DNA of 64,000 bases, from positions 47,122,001-47,186,000 of the forward strand of contig NC_086108.1 of assembly GCF_963921235.1 (NCBI RefSeq), given 5' to 3'. The notes under the pieces are model-generated. The model searched no databases and was not told the origin of the DNA. It saw only the letters and a list, made by a program, of their open reading frames with translations. Origin of the DNA: Mobula hypostoma. Taxonomy: Eukaryota. Within the stretch, counting starts at the first letter, position 1. Each line of letters opens with the position of its first letter. The translations under genes and the position numbers were made by a program. Shown in pieces: positions 17,767-63,385 of this stretch.

Positions 17767-20179
17767 CAGTGCCTTGAAAATGTATTCAGCCCTCACAACT
17801 ATTTTCACATTTTACTGTCACATTTTATAACTTTAAAATATATTGAAATAGGATTTTTTGAGCTTACCTACAAAACATTGTGCATCATGTCAAATCAAAA
17901 GAAAATTTCCAAAACCTCTCAATATTTTCCTAAAAGTTAAAAACCAAAACTGAGGCTGAAAAAGTATTTATCCCCTTTGTAATTACTTTTTAATTACTTG
18001 TGTTGGCGCGTGGCAAAGTGGTTAAGGCATTCGTCTAGTGATTTGAAGATCACTAGTTCGAGCCTTGGCTGAGGCAGCGTGTGTGTCCTTGAGCAAGGCA
18101 CTTAACCACACATTGCTCTGCGATGACACCGGTGCCAAGCTGTATGAGTCCTAATGCCCTTCCCTTGGACAACATCGGTGGGGTGGAGAGGGGAGACTTA
18201 CAGCATGGGCAACTGTTTTGCGCGCTGGAAACCTTCCAAGGCACAAATCCATGGTCTCATGAGACTAATGGATGCCTGTAATTACTATGCCCATTTTCCT
18301 CAGGAGCAATATATTGCCTTACCAACTCACCCAATTTGTGGGTGAGTTTACAATGAATTCATAAGAATAAATTATCCCTAAGAATAAATTCAACAGACCA
18401 AACAAAAATGAAGATGAAAGAGCACTCAAGAGAAGTCAGGGAGTGATAATAGAGAAGTACATAACTGGGCAAGGGTACAAGAGCATCTCAAAGGCACTGA
18501 ACATACCTCAGGGAGTGCAGTCCTTTGTGAAAAGGTGGAAAAACTATGAAACCACAGCCACACTACCTAGGTCAGGCCGCCCCTCTAAACTTAGTTGCTG
18601 GAGAAAAATGGGACTTGTAAGAGAGTTTGATAATTGCCAAAGGTTAATTAAATTCACAGAGTGCTACAGCACAGAAGCAGGCCCTTCAATCCATCTTCTC
18701 TGTGCAGATGAGGTTTTGCCTAGTCATAAACACCTGCACTGAATCATAGCCTTCCACACCCCATTCATCCATGTACCTATCCAAACATGTATTAAATGTT
18801 GCAATTGAACACATGTCCACCACCTCTGCTGTGTGAAGAAGACCCCCCCCCCCCACCCCCAAGTACCTCTCAAATATTTCATTCTGGTTGTACAGTCAAA
18901 AAGATGCTCTTCTGCTGGATTTCCCAGGGAGTCCAGCAACGAAGTTCAGCATTGTTAAAGTTGCCCAACATTTATGCTGAAGAGTTAGTTCTTCATACCT
19001 GCACCTACTACAGGACCCATGACCCTACTGAGTTCACTGGGGGTTATAGGGCTACAGAGGAAGGTGTAAAAGTCTTGTTAATTACAGTCTGTGTGGTTGG
19101 TTTTTTAACTATTTTATTTTCAGTGGTTTATTTTGGATATGTTGAATGACCCACACCATTAAGCAGCTGCAGGTGGTTTGGTTGGCTGCCAAGACTTTGA
19201 AGGTCAGGGCTCCATCACTGTGCAGTGGTGATGCCAGCAGTTACTCTGAGTGAGCTGCAGACGTCAGTGGCTGCAACTGGAGATAAAGTTCATGGCTCCA
19301 AAATCTCTAAGGCCTTACATAAAAGGGTATTTCTGGACAAGTAGCAAGGGCGAAGCCCTGGCTAAAATATCCTTGCCTGTAAAGGCTCTGCAACGTGTCA
19401 TTTAGAAGATACTGTAAAGGTGTGGAAGAAGGTCTTGAGGTCAGATGAGACTAAAGTGGAACTTTTTGTCCTCAACACTAAGCAGTAATATGGTGTAAAT
19501 CTAATACTGTGCATCAGCCAGGTAACACCATACCTATTGTAAAGTATGGTACTATGGGGATGATTTTCAGCAGCAAGGACTGGAAATCTGGTCAGGATTG
19601 ATAGGAAGAAGAATGCTGCTAAATGCAGAGGGATTTGGATAAAAACCTGCTAGCCTTAGCCAGAAAGCTTAAACTGGAGAGGAAGTTCACCTTTCTGCAG
19701 AACAACAACCCAAAGCACACAGCCAGAGCATCCATGGAGTGGCTTCAAATGAAGAAAATTGATGTCCTTGAGTGGCCCAGTCAGAGTCCTGACCTTAACC
19801 CGATCAAACATTTCTGGCAAGACCTTAAGTTTGCTGTCCACTACCACTCCCCAACTAACCTGACGTAGCTTGAGCAATTTTGCAAGGACGAATGGGCAAA
19901 TCTTGCTCCATCACAGTAATAGAGACTTATTCAAAAAGATTACTGGCTGTAATAGCTGCGAGAGGTGGTTCAAATAAATCCTGAGCTGCTGACATTTCAA
20001 TTTTTGGTTTTTCATGCTTTACAATTTTCCCTGTTTTCTTTGGGTCTCTACTGTGGGAGGAAAAAAGGAGTATGCGATTCACAAATAAAAGTTCTCTGTT
20101 AAATTGATCAAAATGCTTGGTTGTAATACTCATTTATATGAACTAAGGGTTGAGGGCTGAGAACTTTTACAAGACACTG
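17767..20179 (+). mobile_element. Tc1-family DNA transposon (defective, with nested insertions)
   Basis: TA|cagtgccttgaaaatgtattcagccc ... gggctgagaacttttacaagacactg imperfect TIRs. Transposase remnants GQGYKSISKALNIP, LPRSGRP, QNNNPKHT and EWPSQSPDLNPI. Confidence 0.9.
17988..18276 (+). mobile_element. tRNA-derived (CORE-like) SINE nested in Tc1
   Basis: A-box tggcaaagtgg, B-box gttcgagcc, CORE-like ccttgagcaaggcacttaacc. 10-bp TSD tgtaattact at 17978-17987 and 18277-18286. Confidence 0.8.
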
Positions 20180-20181
20180 CA

Positions 20182-20950
20182 CAGTGGATTCTGGTTAATT
20201 GGGCCATCAATTAATCAAGGCTGCCACTTATTTGGGACAACGCTTAAAGAATAAAATTAATTGAAAAAATAGCCATGGTTCCCTTTATTTATTTGGGACA
20301 CTATGCTGCTTAACTGGGGCAGGAGACTTGCCGAACAGTTTCTAACTGGCTTCATACATGTGCATTTGTATGCCTTTTAAACGCTACACAGTGCTTCCAA
20401 CAAACAACCTTTTAAATTGCGTCATTTGTGTGTGTTTATGTTCAGAAAGCACTGATTTCTGTCACTGATAATTTAGGACTGTTTTGCTCACTGCTGTTTC
20501 AAGCATTCAGGTTTGGAGATGCTGGAAACAGCTGTGAGTGAAATGAAATTATTTCACTACTTCAGCAAGGTAGGAATTACAAATAATTTGAAGGTATTGA
20601 CAATCATCTTGAATGTTACAACAACAATGGATATTTATAGGGTGCAATGATTGAAAATTGTATGAAGTCAGTCCATTATCTACAGTGGGTGTCTGCACTG
20701 ATTTTGTTCATTTATAGTCATTCCAAAGAACACAGCAGAGTACACATGATCTGTCTCTAACTATTAGGAATAATGCAGTTTTATAATACTGTAGTAGTAT
20801 TGATAATGTTCCAATTTGTTCTGTATTTCATTCAATCATTTGTTACTCAGTTAAACAATAGTTTGTCTTTTCTAAACCTTTTTAATTATTTTCATGAAAC
20901 TTCGGCTCATTGTACTGGTCCTGATGCATCCCAATTAACTGGAATCACTG
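20182..20950. mobile_element. Non-autonomous pogo/Tigger-like DNA transposon
   Basis: TIRs cagtggattctggttaattggg ... cccaattaactggaatcactg followed by TA. Confidence 0.75.
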
Positions 20951-21314
20951 TACTAGTAAAATAAGCCTATAGCTCATTTCAATATAAAATGTAAAGAGTT
21001 TGAGCAAGTTTCATAAGGAAGAAAGATAGTCTGTATTGATCCTGTGATAAAATCTCCATGTACTGTACAGCCTGGCAATTTCCAAATGGATGTTGGCGGT
21101 GAGGAGAATGCTGAAGGGCACAGAGGTAAGGGTTGGTTGAGTACTTGTTCTGTTGAATTTATTTCATTGGCTCATTTTGAACTTGGTCTTCCATATCCTT
21201 TGTGTATTTATACCCAAAGAACACAGGGTCCTCCAATCCAAGCAAAGTGAGTACAAAGCAGTACTTTAAAATAAAATGTTGCCCACACAGGTTGCACATC
21301 GTAAACACAAGAAA

Positions 21315-23620
21315 TTAGAAACCATAGAAAAACTACAGCACAGAATCAGGCCTTTGGCCCTTCTTGGCTGTGCCGAACCATTTTCTGCCTAGTCCCATAG
21401 ACCTGCACGTGGACCATATCCCTCCATACACCTCCCATCCATGTATCTGTCCAATTTATTCTTAAATGTTAAAAAAGAACCCGCATTTACCACCTCTTCT
21501 GGCAGCTCATTCCACATTCCCACCACTCTGTGTGAAGAAGCCCCCCCACCATGTTCCCTTTAAACTCCCCCACCCTTAACCCATGTCCTCTGGTTTTTTT
21601 CTCCCCTTGCCTCAGTGGAAAAAGCCTGCTTGCATTCACTCTATCTATACCCATCATAATTTTATATACCTCTATCAAATCTCCCCTTATTCTTCTACAC
21701 CCCAGGGAATAAAGTCCTAACCTTTTCAACCTTTCTCTGTAACTGAGTTTCTCAAGTCCTGGCAACATCCTTGTAAACCTTCTCTGCACTCTTTCAACCT
21801 TATTAATATCCTTCCTGTAATTTGGTGACCAAAACTGAACACAATACTCCAGATTCGGCCTCACCAATGCCTTATACAACCTCATCATAACATTCCAACT
21901 CTTATACTCAATACTTTGATTAATAAAGGCCAATGTACCAAAAGCTCTCTTTACGACCCTATCTACCTGCGATGCCACTTTTAGGGAATTTTGTACAGTA
22001 TCTGTATTCCCAGATCCCTCTGTTCTACTGCACTCCTCAGTGCCCTACCATTTACCCTGTATGTTCTACCTTGGTTTGTCCTTCCAAAGTGCAATACCTT
22101 ACACTTGTCTGTATTAAACTCCGTCTGCCATTCTTCAGCCCATTTTTCCAGCTGGTCCAAGTCCCTCTGCAAGCTTTGAAAACCTTCCTCGCCGTCCACT
22201 ACACCTCCAGTCTTTGTATCATCAGCAAATTTGCTGATCCAATTTACTACATTATCATCCAGATCATTGATATAGATGACAAATAACAATGGACCCAGCA
22301 CTGATCCCTGTGGCACACCACTAGTCACAGGCCTCCACTCCTGGAAGCAATTCTCTACTACCACTCTTTGGCTTCCTCCATTGAGCCAATGTTTAATCTA
22401 ATTTACCACCTCTCCATGTATACCTAGTGACTGAATTTTCCTAACTAACCTCCCATGCGGAACCTTGTCAAAGGCCTTACTGAAGTCCATGTAGACAACA
22501 TACACTGCCTTCTCTTCGTCCACTTTCCTGGTAACCTCCTCAAAAAAACTCCAATAGATTGGTCAAACATGACCTACCACGCACAAAGCCATGTTGACTC
22601 TCCCTAATAAGTCCCTGTCTATCCAAATGCTTGTAGATTCTGTCTCTTAGTACTCCCTCCAATAACTTACCCACTATCGATGTCAAACTTACTGGCCTAT
22701 AATTTCCCGGATTACTTTTCGATCCTTTTTTAAACAGCGGAACAACATGAGCCATTCTCCAATCCTCCGGCACCTCACCCCTAGACACCAACATTTTAAA
22801 CTTATCTGCCAGAGCCCCTGCAATTTCAACATTAGTCTCCTTCAAGGTCCGAGGGAATACCCTGTCAGGTCCTGGGGATTTATCCAATTTAATTTGCCTC
22901 AAGATAGCAAGCACCTCCTCCTTTTCAATCTGTACAGTTTCCATGATTTCACTACTTGTTTCCCTTAATTCCATAGACTTCATGCCAGTTTCCCTAGTAA
23001 ATACAGATGCAGAAAACCCGTTTAAGATCTCCCCCATTTCTTTTGGTTCCGCACATAGCCGACCACTCTGATCTTCAAGAGGACCAATTTTATCCCTTAC
23101 AGTCCTTTTACTCTTAATATACCTGTAAAAGCTCTTTGGATTATCCTTCACTTTGACTGCCAAGGCAACCTCCTGTCTTCTTTTAGCCCTCCTGATTCCC
23201 TTCTTAAGTATTTTCTTGCACTCTTTATACTCAAGCACCTTATTTACTCCCTGTTTCCTATACATGTCATACAACTCTCTCTTCTTCTTTATCAGAGTTG
23301 CAATATCCCTTGAGAACCAAGGTTCCTTATTCCTATTCACTTTGCCTTTAATCCTGACAGGAACATACAAGCTCTGCACTCTCAAAATTTCTCCTTTGAA
23401 GGCTTCCCACTTACCAATCACATCCTGGCTAGAGAACAACCTGTCCCAATCCACGCTTTTTAGATCCTTTCTCATTTCTTCAAATTTGGCCTTCTTCCAG
23501 TTCAGAACCTCAACCCTAGGATCAGATCTATCCTTGTCCATGATCAAGTTGAAACTAATGGTGTTATGATCACTGGAACCAAAGTGCTCCGCTACACACA
23601 CTTCCGTCACTTGTCCTAAC
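21315..23620 (-). mobile_element. CR1 LINE, 5'-truncated ORF2 (RT)
   Basis: ORFs with KSPGPD, NYRPVSLTS, SQHGF, SGVPQGSVLGP, SKFADDTK and LVRPNLEYCVQFWSP. Frameshifted. Confidence 0.92.
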
Positions 23621-23644
23621 TAAATTCTGTTGGTGCTGGAAATA

Positions 23645-26600
23645 ACCATATGACCTTATAACAATTACAGCACTGAAACAGGCCGTCTCGGCCCTTCTAG
23701 TCTGTGCCGAACTCTTACCCTATCCTAGTCCCACTGACCTGCACTCAACTCATAACCCTCCATTCCTTTCCTGTCCATATATCTATCCAATTTAACTTTA
23801 AATGACAACATTGAACCTGCCTCAACCACTTCTGCTGGAAGCTTGTTCCACACAGCTACCACTCTCTGAGTAGAGACGTTCCCCCTCATGTTACCCCTAA
23901 ACTTTTGCCCTTTAACTCTCAACTCATGTCCTCTTGTTTGAATCTTCCCCATTCTCAATGGAAAAAGTCTAACCATGTCAACTCTATCAATCCCCCTCAT
24001 AATTTTAAACACCTCTATCAAGTCCCCCCTCAACCTTCTACGCTACAAAGAATAAAGACCTAACTTGTTCAATGTCCTCTGTAACTTAGGAGATGAAACC
24101 CAGGAAACATTTTAGTAAACCTCCTCTGTACACTCTCAATTTTATTGACATCTTTCCTATAATTCAGTGACCAGAACTGTACACAATACTCCAGTTTTAG
24201 CCTTACCAATGCCTTATACAAATTCAACATTACATCCCAACTCCTATACTCAATGCTCTGATTTATAAAGGCCAGCATACCAAAAGCTTTCTTCACCACC
24301 CTATCCACATGAGATTCCATCTTCAGCGAACTATGCACCATTATTCCTAGATCCCTCTGTTCTGAAGCATTCTTTAATGCCCTACCATTTACCATGTATG
24401 TCCTATTTTGATTAGTTCTACCAAAATGTAGCACCTCACATTTTTCAACATTAAACTCCATCTGCCATCTTTCAGCCCACTCTTCTAACTGACCTAAATC
24501 TCTCTGCAAGTTTTGAAAACCTACCTCATTATCCACAACACCACCTATCTTGGTATCATCTGCATACTTACTAATCCAATTTACCACCCCATCATCCAGA
24601 TCATTAATATATATTACAAACAACATTGGACCCAGCACAGATCCCTGAGGCACACCGCTACACACCATCCTCCAATCTGACACACAGTTATCCACCACTA
24701 CTCTCTGGCATCTCCCATCTAGCCACTGCTGAATCTATTTTACTACTTCCATATTAATGCCTAACGATTGAACCTTCCTAAATAACCTTCCGTGTGGAAC
24801 CTTGTCAAAGGCCTTACTGAAGTCCACATAGACAACATCCACCGTTTTACCCTGGTCAATTTTCTTAGTAACCTCATCAAAAAATTTGATTTGTCAAACA
24901 TGACCTTCCACGCACAAATCCATGTTGACTGTTCCTAATCAGACCCTGTCTATCCAGAAAATTATATATACCATCTCTAAGAATACTTTCCATCAGTTTA
25001 CCCACTATTGACGTGTCAGAGCCCCTGCTATTTCTACACTAACTTCCCTCAAAGTCCTAGGGAATATCTTGTCCGGACCCAGAGACTTATCCACTTTTAT
25101 ATTCCTTAAAAGTGCTAGTACTTCCTCTTCTTTAATTGTCATACTTTCCATAACTACCCTACTTGTTTCCTTTACCTTACACATTTCAATATCCTTCTCC
25201 TTAGTGAATACCGAAGAAAAGAAATTGTTCAAAATCTCCCCCATCTCTTTTGGCTCCGCACATAGCCGTCCACTCTGATTCTCCAAGGGACGAATTTTAT
25301 CCCTCAGTATCCTTTTGCCACTAACATAACTGTAGAAACCCTTTGGATTTATTTTCACCTTACTTGCCAAAGCAGCCTCGTATCTTCTTTTAGCTTTTCT
25401 AATTTCTTTCTTAAGATTCTTTTTACATTCTTTATATTCCTTGAGTACCTCATTAACTCCAAGCTGCCTATATTTATTGAAGATCCCTCTCTTTTTCTGA
25501 AACAAGTTTCTAATATCTCTTGAAAACCATTGGCTCTCTCAAACTTTTAACCTTTCCTTTCAACCTAACAGGAACATAAAGATTCTGAACCCTCAAAATT
25601 TCACCTTTAAATGACCTCCATTTCTCTGTTACATCCTTCCCATAAAACAAATTTTCTCAATCCACTTCTAAATCCTTTCGCATCTCCTCAAAGTTAGCCT
25701 TTCTCCAATCAAAAATCTCAATCCTAGGTCCAGTCCTATACTTCTCCAAAATTACACTGAAACTAATTGTATTGTGATCACTGGACCCGAAGTGCTCCCC
25801 AACAAATACCTCTGTCACCTGCCATGTTTCCTTCCCTAACAGGAAATCCAACACTGTCCCTTCTCTAGTTGGTACCTCTATGTATTGCTTCAAAAAACTA
25901 TCCTGCACACATTTTACAAAAACTCCAAACCATCCAGCCCTTTTACAAAATGGGCTTCCCAGTCTATGTGTGGAAAATTAAAATCTCCCACAATCACAAC
26001 CTTGTGCTTACTACAAATATCTGCTATCTCCTTACAAATTTGCTTCTCCATTTCTTGGTCCCCATTAGGTGGTCTATAATACACCCCTATAAGCATCACA
26101 ACACCTTTCCTATTTCTCAATTCCACCCAAATAGCCTCCCTAGACGAGTCCACTAATCTATGCTGCCAGAGCACCGCTGTTATATAATCTCTGACAAGCA
26201 ATGCAACACCTCCCCCTCTTGCCCCTCCTATTCTATCACACCTGAAGCAACGAAATCCTGGAATATTTAGTTGCCAATCACACCCCTCCTGCAACCATGT
26301 TTCACTAATAGCTACAACATCATATTTCCAGGTATCAATCTATGCTCTAAGCTCATCCACCTTTCTTACAATGCTCCTAGCATTAAAACAGATGCATTTA
26401 AGAAACTCTCCACCTCCCACTCCCTATTTATCCTTAATGGAGCAAACAACTTTGTTATCTTTTGCTTCCTTCTCCCCTACATCAACCTCCCCTCTCCTAG
26501 TCTCCTTAATTAGATTCCCTCCCCCCAACCATTCTAGTTTAAAGTCACCTTAGTAGCCCTTGCAAATCTCCCCGCCAGGATATTGGTCCCCCTATGATTC

Positions 26601-27680
26601 AAGTGCAACCTGTCCTTTTTGTACAGGTCATGCCTGCACCAATAGTGGTCCCAATGATCCAAAAACCCGAATCCCTGCCCCTTGCTCCAATCTCTCAGTG
26701 ACACATTTATCCTATATTTCATTGCATTCCTACTTTCACTGTTGCCTAGCACAGGCAGTAATCCCGAGATTACTACCTTTGTCGTCCTTTTTCTCAACTC
26801 CCTTCATAACTCCCTATATTCTTCTTTCAGGACCTCTCCCCTTTTTCAACAGATGTCATTGGTACCTATATGTACCACGACCTCTGGCTCCTCTCCCTCC
26901 CACTTCAAGATCTCTTGGAGGCGATCAGAAACATCATGGACCCTAGCACCAAGGAGGCAAACTACCATCCGGGTCTCCTGACTTCATCCACAGAATCGTC
27001 TATCTGACCCCCTAACTATTGAGTCCCCTATTACTATTGTCCTCCTCTTCCGTTCCCTATCCTCCTTAGCTACAGGGCTGGACTCTGTGCTGGAGGCATG
27101 GCCAGTGTTGCTTCCCCCAGGTATGCTGTCCCCTTCAACAGTACTCAAACAGGAGTACTTATTGTCAAGGGGCACAGCCACAGCAGTACTCTCTATTACT
27201 TTATTCTTCCCCTTCCCCCTCCTAACCGTGACCCACTTGTCTGCCTCCCGTGGCCCCGGTGTGACCACCTGCCTGTAACTTCTCTCTATCTACTCCTCAC
27301 TCTCCCTGATAAGACGAAGGTCATCGAGCTACAGCTCCAGTTTCCTAATGCGGTCTCTTAGGAGCTGCATCTCGACGCACCTGGTGCAGATGTGGATGTC
27401 TGGGAGTCTTGGAGACTCCACTACCTCCCACATCTGGCACTGAGAACAACAAGCTGCCCTCACACTCATACTTCCCCTTTCTTCAAATAACAGTGGAAAA
27501 AAAAGTGAATAACCAAACCCTCTTCGCCTTGCCCATTTCCGCCTAAGCCCGTTTAGCCAAAGCCCTTAAGCCTCCACTCTGCTCCCGGCTCACTCCGCCG
27601 CCCACTGTATAAGGCTGTGTTCCTTTTCAATCTTCCTCATTTCCCTCCATGACTGCACAGTCCTGACTCTCTCGATGCCG
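23645..27680 (-). mobile_element. Near full-length CR1 LINE: ORF1 (27469-26534, zinc finger/leucine zipper plus GDSL-SGNH esterase) and ORF2 (APE endonuclease plus RT), decayed
   Basis: ORF1 reads MSVRAACCSQCQ...CTRCVEMQLL...IVIGDSIVRG...DRLHLN...VTLN* in one frame with internal stops. ORF2 has FNARSI, GDFNFP, SDHN and YADD. Internal deletion near 25012. Confidence 0.92.
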
Positions 27681-28604
27681 ATGGAAAAAAAATCATCAGG
27701 AAATCCAAAAGCAACACATGTAAAATGCTGGCGGAACTCAGCAGGTCAGGCAGCGTCTGTGGAAACAAATAAACAGTCGACATTTTGGGACGAGACCCTT
27801 CTTTTCAGTCTTGAAGGAAGGGGGAAGACTCCAGAGTAAAAAGGTGGGGTGGGGGGGGTGGATGAGAAGGAAAATAGCTAGAATGTGACAGGTGAAGCCA
27901 GATGGATAGGAAACCAGATGGCTTGGACTGTGGGAGGAAACCACACCACCTGGAGAAAAACCACAGTCACTGGGAGAATGTACAAACATCTTACAGGCAG
28001 CAGTGGGAATTGAGCACAGGTTGCCCGTACTGTAAAGCGCTGTGCTCAGACCAAGCAGTGACCCCACCTAACGACAGGTCTCACCAATGTTGAGGAGGCC
28101 GCATCGGGAGCACCAGACACAATTGACCCCAGCAGATTCACAGGTGAAGTGTTGCCTCACGTGAAAGGACTGTTTGGGGCCCTGAATGGAGTTGAATGGG
28201 AAGTATAGCACTTGGGCTGCTTGCAGGCATAAGTGCTGGGATGGACGAATGGACAAGGAAATCATGGGTAGAGCGATCCCTGTGGAAAACAGAGAAAATA
28301 CTTTGGAGGGATCCTTTTGGAGATGGCAGAAGTTGCGGAGGATGATTGTTGAATGCGGAGTCTTGTGGTGGTAGGTAAGTACAAGGAACTCTTATCACTG
28401 GTAAGCCGATGGGAAGATGGGGTGAATGCAGATGTTTGGGAAATGGAGAGAGATGCAGGTAAAAGCAGCATCAATAATAGAGGAAGGGAGCCCCCATTCT
28501 TTGAAGGAGGGCATCTCTGATGCCCTGGAAAGGAAAGCCGCATTCTGAGAACAGATGCAGTGGAGACAAAGGAGCTGAGAAAAGGGAATAGTATTTTTAC
28601 AGGA

Positions 28605-29930
28605 GACCATAAGACATAGGAGCAGAATTAGGCCATTTGGACCATCAAGTCTGCTCTGCCATTCAATCATGGCTGATCCTTTTTTCTTTCTCCTCCTCAA
28701 GCCCAGTTCCCGGCCTTCTCCCCGTAACCTTCGATGCCATATCCAATCAAGAACCTATCAATCTCTGCCTTAAATATACCTAGCGACCTGACCTCCACAG
28801 CTGCATGTGGCAACAAATTCCACAAATTCATCACCCTTTGGATAAAGCAATTTCTCTGTATCTCTGTTTTGAAAGAGCACCCCTCTATCCTGAGGCTGTG
28901 TCCTCTTGTCCTAGACTCTGCCACCATGGGAAGCATCCTTTCCACATCTACTCTGTCTGGGCCTTTCAATGTTTGAAAGGTTTCAGTGAGATCCCCCTTC
29001 ATCCTTCTGAATTCCAGCAAGTACAGACCCAGAGCCATCAAATGTTCCTCATATGAAAGGGTATGTTCCTTGTACCCTTTCATTCCTGGAATCATCCTTA
29101 TGAACCTCCTCTGGACCCTCTCCAATGCCAGCACATCCTTTCTAAGATGAGGAGCCCAAAACTGTTCACAATACTCAAGGTGAGGCCTCACCAGTGCCTT
29201 ATAAAGCCTCAGCATCACATCCTTGCTCTTGTATTCTAGACCTCTTGAAATGAATGCTAACATGGCATTTCCCTTCCTCAGCACCAACTCAACTTGCAAG
29301 TTATCCTTCAGGGTGTTCTGCACAAGGACTCTCAAATCCCTCTGCATAGTCATAGTTATACTTTATTGACCCCGGGGGAAATTGATTTTCGTTACAGTTG
29401 CACCATAAATAATAAATAGTAATAAAACCATAAATAGTTAAATAGTAATATGTAAATTATGCCAGTAAATTATGAAATAAGTCCAGGACCAGCCTATTGG
29501 CTCAGGGTGTCTGACCCTCCAAGGGAGGAGTTGTAAAGTTTGATGGCCACAGGCAGGAATGACTTCCTATGACGCTCAGTGCTGCATCTCGGTGGAATGA
29601 GTCTCTGGCTGAATGTACTCCTGTGCCCAACCAGTACATTATGTAGTGGATGGGAGACATTGTCCAAGATGGCATGCAACTGAGACAGCATCCTCTTTTC
29701 AGACACCACCGTGAGAGAGTCCAGTTCCATCCCCACAACATCACTGGCCTTACAAATGAGTTTGTTGATTCTGTTGGTGTCTGCTACCCTCAGCCTGCTG
29801 CCCCAGCACAAAACAGCAAGCATGATCTGCATCTCAGATTCCTGGATTTTCTCCCCTTTTAGAGAATAGTCTGCACATTTATTTCTACTACCAAAGTTCA
29901 TGACCATGTATTTTCCAACATTGTATTTCA
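28605..29930 (-). mobile_element. CR1 3' fragment nested in the Penelope-like element
   Basis: ORF 28697-29353 (RDLRVL...LVRPHLEYCEQFWAP...GYGEKAG) and a CR1 tail. Confidence 0.88.
29348..29825 (-). mobile_element. Rex1/Babar 3' fragment nested in CR1
   Basis: HPLH...RLIPPRCSTERHRKSFLPVAIKLYN C-terminus. TSD tctgcat at 29341-29347 and 29826-29832. Confidence 0.82.
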
Positions 29931-30369
29931 ATGATGGTGAAAAGTCAAGATAACTGGGAGTCGGTAGTTTAGTAAATGATTTCAGTCAACAGTTTGCCTC
30001 CAGAGAAGAGGCAGAGAGTTGAGAAAGGAAAGGGAGCTGTCAGAAATTGCCAAGTGAATTTAAGGACGGGGTGGAAGTTGGAGGCAAAGTTAATGAAATG
30101 GACGAGCTCAGTCAGCATGGATGCATGAAGCAGCACCAATGCACTCAATAATGTAGCAGAGGAAGAGTTAGGGAGCATTATTGGGGTAGGCTTGGAATAT
30201 GGACTGCTCTACATAGCCAATGAAAAGGCAGGCATAGCAGAGGCCCATGTGGGTGCCCATGGCTACTCCTCGAGTCCAGAGAAAGTGGGAGGAGCGGAAG
30301 GAAAAATTGTTAAGGGTAAGGACCATTTCAGCTGATTTGTGTCGTTTTCTCGTTCCGGTAAAAAGAAAT

Positions 30370-55280: not shown

Positions 55281-56439
55281 GATAAAATCAATCTCAACAT
55301 GCTTACATCTCTTACTGATTAGTCTTGCCAGTGGCATTGAAACAACAAGATTTTTTAAAATATAATGTTTATTTGTTTAAACTAATGTTGCCAAAATCTA
55401 ATGTTCAGAAGTACCAGGAATTTTTAATGTCATATTTTGGATTGGCATTTTGAACACAAAACTTTGTTTTTGTTTTTGTCATCAGGGTCAAAGCATTTGT
55501 ACTAAAAGGAGTGTTCAAATTGCATACTTTGGCAATGACGTGAATGTTGGAAATGCTGTGCTAGGGCAGATGATCCTTGAACATTATGCTGTTGCTAGGA
55601 GGAAAGAAATATGGGCTGAAATTTTTTGAAATAGTGACATTTTCAATAATTATTTTTCAGACTGTTCTGAGAAACTATTATTAAACACAGACAACAGAGT
55701 AAAAATGCCTAACCTGCTGTGAGACTCAACTGAAGAAGGAAAATATTTTTATCCTTTAAGTCATTTACATTTCCTAGTGCCTTTTTTTCTAATATATCCC
55801 TAATTCAATAGATTAAATACAACTTTCCTGCAATTTTCTCTTGGATCTCTTTGGCAATGAGCCAATTCTGTCCTCGTGCATTTATGGTTCCTTCAGTCTA
55901 CCATTAGTCAGTGTACCTGTGGCTGTTGTAGATTTGAATCTATTCCCTCCCTGAACCTCACTGCCTCTGTTCCACTTCCTCCTCATTTGAGAACTTGATG
56001 CTCTGCTGTAACTTCTGGTCACTCGTCCAAGTATCTCCTTTTGCACTTTAGTGCCAAATGTTACCCACAAAGCTCCTGTAAGCAATAGCTCTGTTTGTTG
56101 TAGTGAGGTATTCCTTGTGCTGATAACCAAAGGGAATACATTCTCAGCTGATGATTATCAGTCTTGGTTGGTAGCCTTTTGGCTTATCACTGTATGAGAC
56201 CTTCAGAAGATTTTGAAAATGCCTAATAAATTCTCTCTCCTACTTTGTTCTGGCATATGTGAATGTAAGTATATGTGTATATATGTGCGTATCAGTCATA
56301 TGTGAATGTGACTTAAAATTGTCCACCTTTTGGAAACTAAACCACCCCCACTTTGCCTTGTCTCAGAAATAATTATGATTTTAGTTATGGAAAAAAACTT
56401 GAAAACAGATTAACACTGAAACAATTAAAACTTTCAGGG

Positions 56440-57230
56440 GTGGAAGAATAACACGTCTGTTTTTACCTTGTCTCGGAGTTCCAATCCTGTGGGCTATTTC
56501 GATGTCGGGCAATTGTGAAAATGCCTCAGGAAATAGAGATTGAAACACTTTAGCGAAATAGTCCAGTATATCGGCAGATTCTGATTGCTCTTTCAATCCA
56601 ACAATTCGAATATTATAACGACGAGAACAAGCTTCCAAATCAACAATCAACCCGTGGAGGGTCAGATATCCTGAGCCAATAGACTGGTCCTTGACTTATT
56701 TTCCATTTGGCATAGTTTGCATTTGTTGTTTGATTGTTTGTGATTTTTGTATTGCTATATTTATGCTCTATTCTTGGTTGGTACGGCTGTAACGACACCC
56801 AATTTCCCCCGGGATCAATAAAGTATATCTATCTATCTATCTATAATTTGCCGTTGCGCTTTTTCCAAACAAGAGGAAATATCTGCCGCATTACGAGTTA
56901 CTTCTTTAAGATCCAAGCTCAAAGAATCAATTTTTTCCTCCAAAGGAAGAAGACTTTCTTTTAGGTGGGTTAATTCAGCGACAATAGAGCTCATTTGAGT
57001 CTCTAATCTATTAAACTAGGCTGGCTCTTCAGAAGCTTCGTCAGTTTTTTTAGATTTACCATTACCTGTATCGGGAATTTTTTTAGTGCTTCTCAAGGTA
57101 GCCATAATTATAATTATCACTTTAAAAGATCCGACTGAATAAAGTTAAAATTTCAAAGTTTAAGTCGGGAAAGGGAGAAATTAAAGGCAGACAGAAAGAC
57201 ACTGTGTCTTACATGTCCACAGGCGGACGG
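56440..57230 (-). mobile_element. L1/Tx1-like 5' end with ORF1 remnant, interrupted by a short LINE-tail insert (about 56651-56845)
   Basis: ATG at 57105 (MATLRSTKK). DLEACSRRYNIRIVGLKE and IEIAHRIG are typical L1 ORF1 motifs. Confidence 0.75.
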
Positions 57231-58279
57231 CGGAGTCAGGGGTGGAGGAATGAGTGGTGATCCTATTCTATTGAAAGTGTACTCAGAGCCTTCAACCTGG
57301 TTAACCAGTTTCATATATTTTTTAAACAAGTCATCATAAACTGCAGGTTGTACAAGAATTGTCATCTGATTCTCTGATTCTGACTGAGTCTGAGAACTGA
57401 TGAAGGGTCTCACCCCAAAATATTGACTGCTTATTCATTTCCATAAATGCTGTCTGTCCTGCCGAGTTCCTCCAGCATCTTGTGTGTGTTAGTCTGATTC
57501 TCAGCTCAGGTCACTCTACTATTAACAGATCCTCCATTATTAAGTAATTCCCATGCTCTGACACTTTCTGTCCTTGTGCAGCATTAGGAACTACACCAGA
57601 AAAAAATGCCTTGCACAAGCTGCCACTATCTATTTAGTCACAGGTCTAATGAATGAATTTTAGTTTTTATCACATTATCAACAAAATAGTCTCAATGTAT
57701 AGTCTCATATTGAGGTGAAAGGGGAAAATTGAATCTGATTTTATTGCTAATTTTTTTTATATAGTTTCAACTGTGAATTTTTCATTTGAAGAAATAAATT
57801 GGACTTGTTGAAGAATTTGAAACTGTACTCACCATGCATAAGGCTTTCCACTTCATTCTCGTAAGGCAGCTGCAGTACCAGAGACCTGGTATGATTTGTT
57901 GTATTCCATTGATATTGCGGATACAACCTTTTGAAGATGTTCAACCTAATGCAACCTGTTATCAGAGTCAGGGGTTTGCCAGTCCGTATTGGTGCCTGTT
58001 TTGTGTGAAAGTTAAACAATGGGAAAACCCCTCTCGATGGTATTCAGCTTTGCCCATGTTGTTCACAACTGATTCATCCTGCACTTGATGCTTCGGCTCT
58101 CTGAGAAAGGAACCAGGGTCAAACATGCAGTAAAAGAATGTACTAATGTATCATTGTGTTCGTAGACAATGTGATAAGATTTTAGCATGGAATAGAATAG
58201 GGGTAGTTGAACTTAATCCAAATTCTAGAAAAATGACAAGTCAGCAAATTGAGGAAATGAAATGCAGAGGCGGTTGGAG

Positions 58280-58359
58280 CAAGGATTTCCAAATGGGGGT
58301 CCACAGACTCCTTGCTTAAGGGTATCGGTCCATGGCATAAAAAAGGTTGGGAACCCCTG
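58280..58359. mobile_element. hAT/Charlie-like MITE (80 bp)
   Basis: caaggatttccaa ... ttgggaacccctg TIRs. Imperfect 8-bp TSD ggttggag / gtttagag. Confidence 0.6.
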
Positions 58360-58686
58360 GTTTAGAGGTTGATAGTGCCTTGATATGTTGTGGAGGTGGA
58401 AGGAAGGGCTTTTGGAAATAATGGTTAAAATTTGGCTGTGTTTTGCAAAACCCACTAGGACTTCATGGAGATTAGTTCAAGTTATGGACTTACAAGAGCG
58501 AGATAGATCAATTGGTTGAGTGGTGATGCAAAAACAACCTCACACTCAACGTCAGCAAGACCGAGGAACTGATTGTGGACTTCAGGATAGGGACGGCAGG
58601 AGAATAGACACCTATCCTCAGGGTGGTCAGCAGTGGAAAGGGTGAGCAGCTTAAAGTTCCTGGGCATCAACATCTGAGAGGACCCA

Positions 58687-61600
58687 ACATAGAAACATAG
58701 AAACATAGAAAATAGGTGCAGGAGTAGGCCATTCGGCCCTTCGAGCCTGCACCGCCATTTATTATGATCATGGCTGATCATCCAACTCAGAACCCAGCCT
58801 TCCCTCCATACCCCCTGACCCCTGTAGCCACAAGGGCCATATCTAACTCCCTCTTAAACATAGCCAATGAACTGGCCTCAACAGTTTGCTGTGGCAGAGA
58901 ATTCCACAGATTCACCACTCTCTGTGTGAAGAAGTTTTTCCTAATCTCGGTCCTAAAAGGCTTCCCCTCTATCCTCAAACTGTGACCCCTCGTTCTGGAC
59001 CTCCCCATCATCGGGAACAATCTTCCCGCATCTAGCCTGTCCAATCCCTTTGGGATCTTATACGTTTCAATCAGATCCCCCCTCAATCTTCTAAATTCCA
59101 ACGAGTACAAGCCCAGTTCATCCAGTCTTTCTTCATATGAAAGACCTGCCATCCCAGGAATCAATCTGGTGAACCTTCTTTGTACTCCCTCTATGGCAAA
59201 GATGTCTTTCCTCAGATTAGGGGACCAAAACTGCACACAATACTCCAGGTGTGGTCTCACCAAGGCCTTGTACAACTGCAGTAGTACCTCCCTGCTCCTG
59301 TACTCAAATCCTCTCGCTATAAATGCCAGCATACCGTTCGCCTTTTTCACCGCCTGCTGTACCTGCATGCCCACTTTCAATGACTGGTGTATAATGACAC
59401 CCAGGTCTCGTTGCACCTCCCCTTTTCCTAATCGGCCACCATTCAGATAATAATCTATTTTCCTATTTTTGCCACCAAAGTGGATAACTTCACATTTATC
59501 CACATTAAATTGCATCTGCCATGAGTTTGCCCACTCACCCAACCTATCCAAGTCACCCTGTATCCTCTTAGCATCCTCCTCACTGCTAACACTGCCACCC
59601 AGCTTCGTGTCATCCGCAAACTTGGAGATGCTGCATTTAATTCCCTCATCCAAGTCATTAATATATATTGTAAACAACTGGGGTCCCAGCACTGAGCCTT
59701 GCGGTACCCCACTAGTCACCGCCTGCCATTCTGAAAAGGTCCCGTTTATTCCCACTCTTTGCTTCCTGTCTGCTAACCAATTCTCCACCCACACCAATAC
59801 CTTACCCCCAATACCGTGTGCTTTAAGTTTGCACACTAATCTCCTGTGTGGGACCTTGTCAAAAGCCTTTTGAAAATCCAAATATACCACATCCACTGGT
59901 TCTCCCCTATCCACTCTACTAGTTACATCCTCAAAAAATTCTATGAGATTCGTCAGACATGATTTTCCTTTCACAAATCCATGCTGACTTTGTCCGATCA
60001 TTTCACCGCTTTCCAAATGTGCTGTTATCACATCCTTGATAACTGACTCCAGCAGTTTCCCCACCACCGACGTTAGGCTAACCAGCCTATAATTCCCCGG
60101 TTTCTCTCTCCCTCCTTTTTTAAAAAGTGGGGTTACATTAGCCACCCTCCAATCCTCAGGAACTAGTCCAGAATCTAACGAGTTTTGAAAAATTATCACT
60201 AATGCATCCACTATTTCTTGGGCTACTTCCTTAAGCACTCTGGGATGCAGACCATCTGGCCCTGGGGAATTATCTGCCTTCAATCCCTTCAATTTACCTA
60301 ACACCACTTCCCTACTAACATGTATTTCACTCAGTTCCTCCATCTCACTGGACCCTCTGTCCCTTACTATTTCTGGAAGATTATTTATGTCCTCCTTAGT
60401 GAAGACAGAACCAAAGTAATTATTCAATTGGTCTGCCATGTCCTTGCTCCCCATAATCAATTCACCTGTTTCTGTCTGCAGGGGACCTACATTTGTCTTT
60501 ATCAGTCTTTTCCTTTTTACATATCTATAAAAGCTTTTACAGTCCGTTTTTATGTTCTCTGCCAGTTTTCTCTCATAATCTTTTTTCCCCTTCCTAATTA
60601 AGCCCTTTGTCCTCCTCTGCTGAACTCTGAATTTCTCCCAGTCCTCAGGTGAGCCACTTTCTCTGGCTAATTTGTATGCTACTTCTTTGGAATTGATACT
60701 ATCCCTAATTTCTCTTGTCAGCCACGGGTGCACTACCTTCCTTGATTTATTCTTTTGCCAAACTGGGATGAACAATTGTTGTAGTTCATCCATGCAACCT
60801 TTAAATGCTTGCCATTGCATATCCACCGTCAATCCTTTAAGTGTCATTTGCCAGTCTATCTTAGCTAATTCATGTCTCATACCTTCAAAGTTACCCCTCT
60901 TTAAGTTCAGAACCTTTGTTTCTGAATTAACTATGTCACTCTCCATGTTAATGAAGAATTCCACCATATTATGGTCACTCTTACCCAAGGGGCCTCTCAC
61001 GACAAGATTGCTAATTAACCCTTCCTCATTGCTCAAAACCCAGTCCAGAATAGCCTGCTCTCTAGTTGGTTCCTCGACATGTTGGTTCAAAAAACCATCC
61101 CGCATACATTCCAAGAAATCCTCTTCCTCAGCACCTTTACCAATTTGGTTCACCCAGTCTACATGTAGATTGAAGTCACCCATTATAACTGCTGTTCCTT
61201 TATTGCACACATTTCTAATTTACTGTTTAATACCATCTCCGACCTCACTACTACTGTTAGGTGGCCTGTACACAACTCCCACCAGCATCTTCTGCCCCTT
61301 AGTGTTACGCAGCTCTACCCATATCGATTCCACATCTTCCCGGCTTATGTCCTTCCTTTCTATTGCGTTAATCTCTTTTTTAACCAGCAACGCCACCCCA
61401 CCTCCACTTCCTTCATGTCTATCCCTCCTGAATATTGAATATCCCTGAACGTTGAGCTCCCATCCCTGGTCACCCTGGAGCCATGTCTCTGTGATCCCAA
61501 CTATATCATAATCATTAATAACAATCTGCACTTTCAATTCATCCACCTTATTGCGAATGCTCCTTGCATTGACACATAAAGCCTTCAGGCGCTCTTTTAC

Positions 61601-61857
61601 AACTCTCTTAGCCCTTGTACAATTATGTTGAAAAGTGGCCCTTTTTAATGCTTGCCCTGGATTTGTCGGCCTGCCACTTTTACTTTTCTCCTTTGTACTT
61701 TTTGCTTCTACGCTCACTTTACACCCCTCTGTCTCTCTGCACTGGTTCCCATCCCTCTGTTGTGAACTAACCTCCTCACGCCTAGCCTCTTTAATTTGAT
61801 TCCCACCCCCCAACCATTCTAGTTTAAAGTCACCTCAGTAGCCCCCGCTAATCTCCC
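58687..61857 (-). mobile_element. Young CR1 LINE: last codons of ORF1 plus complete ORF2 with one premature stop, inserted in a Rex1 fragment
   Basis: ORFs 61220-61813 and 58787-61210 share a frame and are separated by one TAA. VNARSI, ITETW, GDFN, SDHN and FADD are present. (ttctatgt)n tail. Rex1 sequence on both flanks (about 58480-58686 and 61858-61935). Confidence 0.95.
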
Positions 61858-61944
61858 TGAAGAAGGCACAGCAGCGGCTCGACTTCGTGACGAGTTTGAG
61901 ATTTGATATGTCACCAAAGAAGCTCATAAATTTCAATTAGAGTC

Positions 61945-63385
61945 AGACAAACTTGGAAAGGGTGAATACAGGACTGAAGATTTTATATTTGAATGTATGC
62001 AGTATATGGAATAAAGTAAATGAACTTGTAGCACAGTTACAGATTGTTATATACGATGTTGCGGGCATCACTGAATCGTGGCTGAAGGAAGATTATAGCC
62101 TGGAGCTTAACATCCAAGGACACACATTGTATCAAAAGGACAGGCAGGCTGGCAGAGGGATGGCATGGGTCTGTTGGTAAAAAATGAAATCTTATCATTA
62201 GAAAGAGGTGACATAGGATAGAAAGGTGTTAAATCATTGCGGGTAGAGCAAAGGAACTACAAGGGCAAATACCTTGACAGAAGTTGTATAGAGAGCCCCA
62301 AACAGTAATAAAGATATGGTCTACAAATTACAATGGGAGATTGAAAATGCATGTCAAAAGAGCAATATTAAGATGGTCATGGGGATATCAATACGCAGGT
62401 AGATAGGGAAAATCAGATTGGTGTTGGATCCCAAGAGAGGGAGTTTCTAGAATACCTACTAGATGGATTTTTAGAGCAGCTCATGGTTAAGCCCACTAGG
62501 GCATCAGCTATTCTGAACTGGGTGTTGTGCAATGAATTTAAATTGATTAGAGAGCTTAAGGGAAAGGAACCCTTAGGAGTCAGTTATCATAATATGATAG
62601 AATTCACCCTGCAAGTTGAGAAAGAGAAGCTAAAGTCAGATATATAAGTGTTACAGTGGATTAAAGGGAATTACAGAGGCACAAGAAAGGAGCTGGCCAA
62701 AATTGATTAGAAAAGAACACTGGCAGGGATGACAGCAGAGTAGCAATGACTGGAATTTCTGGGAGCAAGAGGACCACAACCATGTCATGGTTTGAAGGCT
62801 TGCATGCCTCAATGACCCAGAGAGTTATGCTGGCTGGCATTAGGGCTTTATGCTGTGGCTCTTGATAAGGTCACCCATGCCAAACAGTCAAAGGGTAGAG
62901 GCCAGACCAAGAGTGGTCCACTGATCCTCCAGGCTCGGGGGTTCAGCTCAGGGCTAACAACCCTGACTGGTCAAACAAAACTGTTATGGATACAGCAATG
63001 AAGAATCAGTATCAACAGTATGCAACAGTATCCCGGAGTCTCCACCTGGGGCTTGAATGACTGACATTAAACTGAGCGGAAGCTACTGACACAAAGAAGG
63101 AAGCTGTGAACACCACTGGAGATAGGGGACCTTCATTGCTGCCCTAAATGCCAGCAGTGTAACAAGAAAGAGAAAGAAGTATCCTAAAGACAGGGTGACA
63201 CAATTGTGACTGACAAGAGAAGTCAAAGCCAACATAAAAGCCAAAGAGAGGGCATATAATAGAGCAAAAATCAGTGGGAAATTAGAAGACTGGGAAGCTT
63301 TTAAAAAGTAACAGAAGGCAACTAAATAAGACAAAAATAAGGAAAAGATTGATTACGGAGTTAAGCTAGCCAATAATATTCGAGA
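61945..63385 (+). mobile_element. Decayed CR1 endonuclease region
   Basis: LKILYLNVCSIWNKVNEL...GITESWL, with many stops. Confidence 0.8.
62770..63162 (+). mobile_element. Short non-autonomous RTE-derived element nested in CR1
   Basis: Interrupts CR1 collinearity. The 5' part resembles fish RTE (Rex3/Expander) 5' UTRs and it ends ttcattgctgccctaaatgccagc like RTE 3' ends (family recognised from memory). Confidence 0.5.

Follow-up and report, generated by a model that had tools for sequence, protein, structure and literature searches.

CR1 elements are a dominant group of retroelements of cartilaginous fish, reptiles and birds, and to our knowledge the start of their ORF2 has no fixed annotation. 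The frameshift site of the coronavirus IBV is U_UUA_AAC. Both this heptamer and G_GGA_AAC are counted among the most shift-prone ones in the available part of PMC5009743. The translation of LINE ORF2 is described as open in the available text of PMC3894237, where reinitiation, IRES and 2A are listed and frameshifting is not, while the Dictyostelium elements TRE5-A and TRE3-A, according to the accessible portion of PMC5911963, "require a -1 frameshift". The ZfL2-1 type LINEs of the CR1 clade (Schneider et al. 2013, PMC3905857) are, as far as the accessible text goes, similar to the elements considered here in having an SGNH esterase ORF1 and an ORF2 with APE and RT; the word "frameshift" is never used in the accessible main text of that paper. 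CR1 is not tied to ribosomal frameshifting in the accessible parts of PMC2881922, PMC10275272, PMC3708506, PMC4255032, PMC5006619 and PMC3905857, and "CR1" is absent from the first 300,000 of the 449,034 characters of PMC5009743. No published report of the CR1 heptamer was found in this survey, which did not extend to the first descriptions of CR1 reading frames, where an early remark is possible.

The window, i.e., the whole analysed stretch of 64,000 nucleotides of a ray genome, reads GTG ACT TTA AAC TAG on its minus strand (61834-61800, read directly), and this is the end of a CR1 ORF1 (VTLN*; Table 1). As claimed in the preliminary description, the heptamer at 61828-61822 is in phase with the stop adjoining it, the -1 frame is the frame of ORF2, and the nearby ATG (61817) lies in the wrong frame, +1, where MVGGWESN* is read. 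After the TGA at 61837-61835 the -1 frame reads FKLEWLGGGNQ and, again as described, is free of Met up to LKALCVNARSI at 61588-61556. Beyond that description, the window copy was found to be truncated, with just 41 nt of ORF1 left, and to have a stop at codon 203 of ORF2 (61222-61220). With both defects the copy is inactive, so that the frameshift claim concerns its family. The copy is 98.3% identical to the intact copy L230 over 3177 nt (blastn), and the terminus of ORF1 is placed at the heptamer and stop because the full-length copies L017, L020 and L030 encode an ORF1 of 311 aa.

Table 1. Features of the CR1 junctions in the window.
Feature	Position	Strand	Basis or remark
CR1 LINE copy, 5'-truncated, young subfamily A	58689..61859	-	blastn to intact copy L230
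ORF1 remnant, last 41 nt, …GRLAGATEVTLN*	61819..61859	-	full ORF1 is 311 aa
TGA closing the -1 frame upstream; a start-codon-free overlap of 16 nt results	61835..61837	-	2 codons before the heptamer
Slippery heptamer T_TTA_AAC, in phase with ORF1 codons	61822..61828	-	sequence and conservation
ORF1 stop TAG, adjoining the heptamer; CTA in the -1 frame	61819..61821	-	sequence
Mini-ORF MVGGWESN* in the +1 frame	61791..61817	-	ATG one base past the ORF1 stop
Conserved G-tract GGGGG-NN-GGG, candidate 3' stimulator	61802..61811	-	10 nt after the heptamer
Linker in the -1 frame, 80 codons, open, Met-free, charged	61589..61828	-	translation
ORF2 (APE endonuclease and reverse transcriptase), premature stop at 61222-61220	58787..61588	-	Pfam on L230
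3' UTR, ending in short (TTCTATGT)-type tandem repeats	58689..58786	-	sequence
Second CR1 copy, older subfamily B, heptamer and TAG, 53-codon linker	26534..26543	-	exact junction match

The decamer TTTAAACTAG matches the window exactly at two places, both of them CR1 ORF1/ORF2 junctions; with up to one mismatch it occurs 9 times against 7.2 expected, i.e., it is not rare by itself. The linker of the subfamily B copy at 26534-26543 (minus strand) is broken by one stop. Over the CR1 copies (20000-30000 and 58000-62000 of the window) the GC skew goes down to -0.48, a strong strand asymmetry. A short minus-strand frame at 56381-56695, with …SRRYNIRIVGLKE…, presumably resembles an L1-type ORF1 fragment.

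The junction region is matched over 258-261 nt at 100% in 39 other places (among 40 scored), and the genome of 3.48 Gb holds many near-identical copies of family A, including intact ones, L230 being open for 1015 codons from the heptamer. ORF1 of 311 aa combines an N-terminal Cys cluster with an SGNH/GDSL esterase (PF13472, E 2e-16; PF00657; protein P0001), and ORF2 of L230 contains, according to Pfam, the APE endonuclease (PF03372, PF14529) followed by the reverse transcriptase (PF00078). In full-length copies of family A the first Met in the ORF2 frame is codon 216, deep in the endonuclease. Among named ORF1 proteins the closest belongs to a ray (96%), and relatives of the esterase ORF1 were found from sharks to birds. 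Both traits of the CR1 clade, an APE-RT ORF2 and an esterase ORF1, are present, which assigns the class by domains and not by RT phylogeny. The 3' end of the copy consists of short tandem repeats without poly(A), and 5' truncation is frequent; short tandem-repeat tails are presumably marks of CR1.

Searches of the ray genome with two DNA queries, four divergent ORF1 proteins and fetched regions gave 12 groups, named subfamilies A-L; H consists of one decayed copy reading TTTGAAC and contributed no representative. The 146 copies were anchored on the DGxH motif of the esterase, not on the heptamer, and 19 of them, out of register or with the stop missing, were dropped. TTTAAAC was found in 119 of the 127 in-register genomic copies, and the remaining 8 differ by one base. 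T_TTA_AAC and a stop (TAG or TAA throughout) end ORF1 in 11 of 11 subfamily representatives, although these counts are non-independent trials because the subfamilies share ancestry, and the heptamer was part of the queries that yielded A and B. The representatives have 51-90% nucleotide identity over 300 nt of ORF1, their four-fold third positions being identical in 105 of 252 comparisons.

The common form of the 11 junctions is NNG NNT TTA AAC TAR. The codon before Leu is ACT, AAT, GCT, GGT, GAT, TGT or AGT; thus, the residue before Leu-Asn varies (T, N, A, G, D, C or S) and the T of its third position is fixed. In the upstream parts of the same representatives Leu is written TTA in 21 of 144 cases and Asn is written AAC in 18 of 64, none of the 14 invariant residues having several codons is written with one codon in all 11, and the third base is invariant in 9 of 121 codons, 3 of which are Trp columns (ungapped alignment, with subfamily C off by one residue in its first part). 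Taken with the protein tails considered below, these codons indicate that the synonymous sites of the heptamer are under constraint. The preliminary description had proposed comparing TTTAAAC-stop across subfamilies; it is kept in all 11 representatives and does not vary freely at synonymous sites. When the same genome was searched with a protein query ending in QGN, 12 further loci were obtained, 11 of them anchored and only subfamily D being returned; the heptamer was in register in 9, mutated in 1 and shifted by a deletion in 1, and 1 locus was unanchored.

Two side observations concern the same region. The codon two before Leu or Gly always ends in G (NNG NNX XXY YYZ) in the 11 representatives and in the metagenome loci L094 and L095, across V, R, E, G and L codons, which may reflect the 5' context of the site or may be accidental. 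In one copy of subfamily D (L237) the junction region occurs twice as a tandem duplication.

From the heptamer to the endonuclease motif there is a linker of 49-110 codons. In 12 representatives (11 subfamilies and L094, with A, D and J partly chosen for an open ORF2) its -1 frame has 1 stop in 815 codons vs 60 expected from shuffles, and the other two frames over the same linkers have 51 and 95. The endonuclease motif was located in 91 of the 127 copies and not located in 36. It was in the -1 frame in 74 of the 91 (61 open, 13 with stops) and in other frames in 17, which we infer to reflect indels in single copies. In 7 of 11 subfamilies the open -1 frame extends just 1-5 codons upstream of the heptamer.

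The ORF2 without AUG, as first described, is real for family A, where none of the 22 copies has a Met before the endonuclease, but it is not a property of CR1 generally. The linker is Met-free in A, B, F, G and L, so that the absence of an in-frame AUG, expected across subfamilies, was found in only 5 of 11, whereas C, D, E, I, J and K (6 of 11) have one to three Met at unshared positions (4, 8, 19, 38, 39 and 54). Counted by copy, a Met precedes the endonuclease in 3 of 15 copies of B and 18 of 19 of D. No near-cognate start is shared among the junctions, and no start codon lies in the ORF1/ORF2 overlap of family A. The ATG of the mini-ORF is present in A, B and one H copy and absent in C-G. 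One subfamily of the 11, E, has CTA ATG, which is an overlapping SART1-like UAAUG in the ORF2 frame; it is absent in A. In the copies L129 and L134 of subfamily E the junction is TTTAAACTAATG, where the heptamer and UAAUG overlap, a natural setting in which frameshift and reinitiation could be set against each other.

In one further copy, L225 (G000:C1:217917600-217922500), ORF1 and ORF2 form one frame of 1097 codons (…AIGGGFKLDLQ…), apparently because one base was changed in the G-run preceding the heptamer, and the copies L199 and L209 of subfamily J have similar fusions in a G7 run. These fusions are probably mutations of single copies or assembly slips.

At the DNA level, junctions are available from the ray genome and two metagenome loci, and those of tetrapods are known from protein tails. 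Among 121 near relatives of ORF1, 74 of the 79 with a full tail end in LN*, and they come from sharks, rays, coelacanth, frogs, turtles, squamates and birds. In a wider set, 163 of 254 proteins have the tail, giving 113 non-redundant ones: 65 with LN, 6 with GN and 42 with neither. The residues E, K, Q, M and W, whose codons never end in T, stand before LN in 1 of 65 tails vs 77 of 455 nearby positions (p=3e-4), and the residue before GN is Q in 6 of 6.

A metagenome scan gave 3 loci, 2 of which reach the junction: CAG GGA AAC TAG in L094 and GCG GGA AAC TAG in L095, i.e., G_GGA_AAC with a stop in both. ORF2 of L094 is in the -1 frame, has APE-RT, is open for 946 codons and is 43% identical to that of L230; in-frame ATGs before the endonuclease occur in it too. 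By this identity and the same domains, L094 is CR1-like only. L095 is too short to show ORF2, and G_GGA_AAC at the DNA level stands at two loci. The change from T_TTA to G_GGA replaces an amino acid in each of the two frames (L to G and F to G), and X_XXY_YYZ is kept; because the swap keeps this form, the heptamer itself appears to be held by selection, which is the strongest single argument of this study.

In 3 of 17 long bird and frog gene models (stork), FKL-D-[LS]-KGEG is in frame with the linker and endonuclease and matches FKL-x-x-x-G-x-G of the ray; when naturally fused ORF1-ORF2 families were sought, 17 gene models turned up, all chimeric and none clearly representing a fused family. 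A dipeptide compatible with slippage occurs close to the same position in 24 of the 42 tails with neither ending and is missing from 18, the background being 180 of 588 windows. In 10 of the 24 tails it is x-K-N, where the codon of x may end in A, and therefore A_AAA_AAC is predicted there at the protein level. A distant ORF1 group (P0171, P0190, P0209, P0227, P0233, P0235, P0238, P0245 and P0249) has x-K-N near the end of the esterase; ORF1 mostly continues past it, and the predicted A_AAA_AAC would have no adjoining stop. The search of genome contigs gave 32 loci, all of bacterial esterases, and was set aside; the plasmid search gave no match and the viral contig scans nothing usable.

Downstream of the heptamer, the G-rich run begins, as had been noted, after 6 nt (61815), and its conserved core of G5-6 begins after 10 nt. 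The positions +8..+12 (GGGGG) and +15..+17 (GGG) after the stop are nearly invariant in 10 subfamilies, including third positions of Gly codons in the -1 frame; for comparison, G makes up 91 of 366 four-fold bases upstream. In 13 of 13 junctions, those of L094 and L095 among them, a run of at least 4 G begins at a distance of 8-12 nt past the heptamer. As to the stimulator suggested in the preliminary description, the hairpin found no support: folds of 45-100 nt from 9 copies were weak and unshared, with energies of -1.2 to -6.1 kcal/mol over 45 nt, and no stable or shared stem-loop was seen 5-9 nt downstream (folding without pseudoknots, in a region very poor in C). For the G-quadruplex, a two-tier pattern is possible in 7 of 13 junctions; it is not universal, no junction of the 13 has a three-tier one, and a fold is predicted in A, B and D only. 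Rfam gave one chance match over the junction (E 0.52) and nothing above noise. Pairing of the G-tract with a CCCC-rich segment of ORF1, located some 640 nt upstream, seemed promising in 5 of 9 subfamilies and was dropped because cognate pairs were no better than non-cognate ones (permutation p 0.57). The sense strand of CR1 is rich in G and A and poor in C and therefore leaves little room for RNA structure; since hairpin, Rfam and long-range pairing are all unsupported, the classical -1 cassette is here without its structure.

The stimulator is the least certain part of the frameshift reading. By analogy, we tentatively favour an unstructured G-tract 8-12 nt downstream, which may act through a bound protein. 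Slow termination at the adjacent stop, as a helper or even ahead of the G-tract, is nearly as plausible, and a G-quadruplex seems unlikely. Stimulators 12-15 nt from a -1 site, structured or linear, are a minority and act with trans-acting factors, linear ones at 11-15 nt downstream act through trans-acting proteins, and a stop codon near the -1 site is needed in pea enation mosaic virus (all from the available part of PMC5009743).

Summarizing these data, it is quite probable, from comparison of the sequences, that the conserved heptamer at the CR1 ORF1/ORF2 overlap drives a programmed -1 frameshift giving an ORF1-ORF2 fusion. The phasing, the frame relation, the conservation and the swap of the heptamer in distant relatives are direct observations, and the site and fusion put forward in the preliminary description have strong comparative support in the synonymous constraint, the open linker and G_GGA_AAC. 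Most ribosomes would decode UUA AAC, meet the stop as the next codon and release the ORF1 protein of 311 aa. A minority would slip one base back, tRNA-Leu moving from UUA to UUU and tRNA-Asn from AAC to AAA, and would go on with CUA GAA UGG…, the junction being …VTLNLEW. The predicted product of about 1,324 aa (311 + 1013) would comprise ORF1, linker, endonuclease and reverse transcriptase, with the linker as a charged tether of 50-110 residues. Such a frameshift would set the ratio of ORF1 protein to reverse transcriptase and tether the latter to ORF1 protein multimers, as in Gag-Pol.

The main competitor is termination-reinitiation, in which ribosomes restart at a nearby AUG or at any codon and a separate ORF2 protein is made. 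L1 and SART1 have been shown to work in this way (PMC2881922 and PMC3708506, in their accessible parts), and reinitiation could make use of UAAUG in subfamily E and of the linker Met in 6 of 11 subfamilies; moreover, the ORF1 stop always adjoins the start of the open -1 frame. However, 5 of 11 subfamilies, the young A among them, are Met-free before the endonuclease, the Met positions elsewhere are unshared in a frame already open upstream of them, and no near-cognate codon is conserved. Reinitiation also leaves the fixed third positions upstream of the stop and the exchange of T_TTA for G_GGA unexplained, and we find it improbable as the general route, while it may add to ORF2 output in subfamily E. 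There is somewhat more room, still on the unlikely side, for a combination of both routes, with an ancestral frameshift and with reinitiation used also or only by those lineages, E for example, in which an AUG arose. UAAUG in E and the linker AUGs in C, D, I, J, K and L094 agree with such a history, yet all AUG-bearing lineages keep the intact heptamer and the open frame 5' of the AUG, and because of this retention the slip site must be still constrained there. The combination is a refinement of the frameshift reading, not an alternative to it.

The motif might also be kept for other reasons, such as a C-terminal Leu-Asn required by the esterase, a signal for splicing or RNA processing, or polymerase slippage, with ORF2 expressed from spliced or slipped transcripts. 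LN is indeed nearly invariant at the protein level, and TTTAAAC..TAG holds an AG that could, we infer, be an acceptor. But the needs of the protein cannot fix TTA, AAC and the preceding third base, and LN is replaced by GN while the form of the heptamer stays. The acceptor AG is missing in 5 of 11 subfamilies, where the stop is TAA, and runs of three are short for polymerase slippage. RNA contigs of 4 runs over the copy L223 cover the stretch and are uninformative on splicing; among the 15 of 42 joints listed, none crosses the heptamer and none has GT..AG ends. In our opinion, explanations of this kind are highly improbable, and the programmed -1 frameshift is retained as the preferred reading.

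A wider proposal, which we offer as a rather doubtful one, is that throughout animals the CR1 LINEs with an esterase ORF1 produce reverse transcriptase in a single form, a Gag-Pol-like ORF1-ORF2 fusion, by an ancient -1 frameshift at interchangeable heptamers (U_UUA_AAC, G_GGA_AAC and probably A_AAA_AAC) without RNA structure, triggered by the adjacent stop and a protein-bound G-tract. If true, it would be the most abundant frameshift signal in the genomes of sharks, reptiles and birds and a new class of -1 stimulator. If the fusion is right, the design of engineered CR1, particle assembly and the reading of gene models over CR1 would all change, and a natural -1 site would be seen that seemingly works without downstream structure.

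Compared with known systems, the CR1 junction is similar to retroviral gag-pol and coronavirus ORF1a/1b in its X_XXY_YYZ heptamer and short overlap, with the structural protein in frame 0 and the polymerase in frame -1. In contrast to this cassette, CR1 is a non-LTR element without a protease domain found by Pfam that could cut the fusion and without a stem-loop or pseudoknot 5-9 nt downstream, and its stop directly follows the heptamer in every lineage. With L1 and SART1 it shares a bicistronic LINE RNA and low ORF2 output, as well as UAAUG in subfamily E; unlike them, most CR1 subfamilies lack an AUG at the junction, and the phased heptamer is retained in all. In the arterivirus nsp2 frameshift, nsp1beta and PCBP act on CCCANCUCC 11 nt 3' of the site (available part of PMC5009743), and the short linear motif that takes the place of a structure in arteriviruses and cardioviruses, 11-14 nt past the shift site, as given in the available text, is comparable to the G-tract 8-12 nt after that of CR1, although the CR1 motif is G-rich and that of arteriviruses C-rich, and a protein binding the former is suggested by analogy only. 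TRE5-A and TRE3-A are, like CR1, APE-type LINEs with a claimed -1 frameshift, but they are Amoebozoan and of another lineage, and a slip site and an esterase ORF1 are unmentioned in the accessible text on them. Thus, a -1 frameshift in LINEs has already been claimed for the TRE elements, and the CR1 case is unusual in lacking structure.
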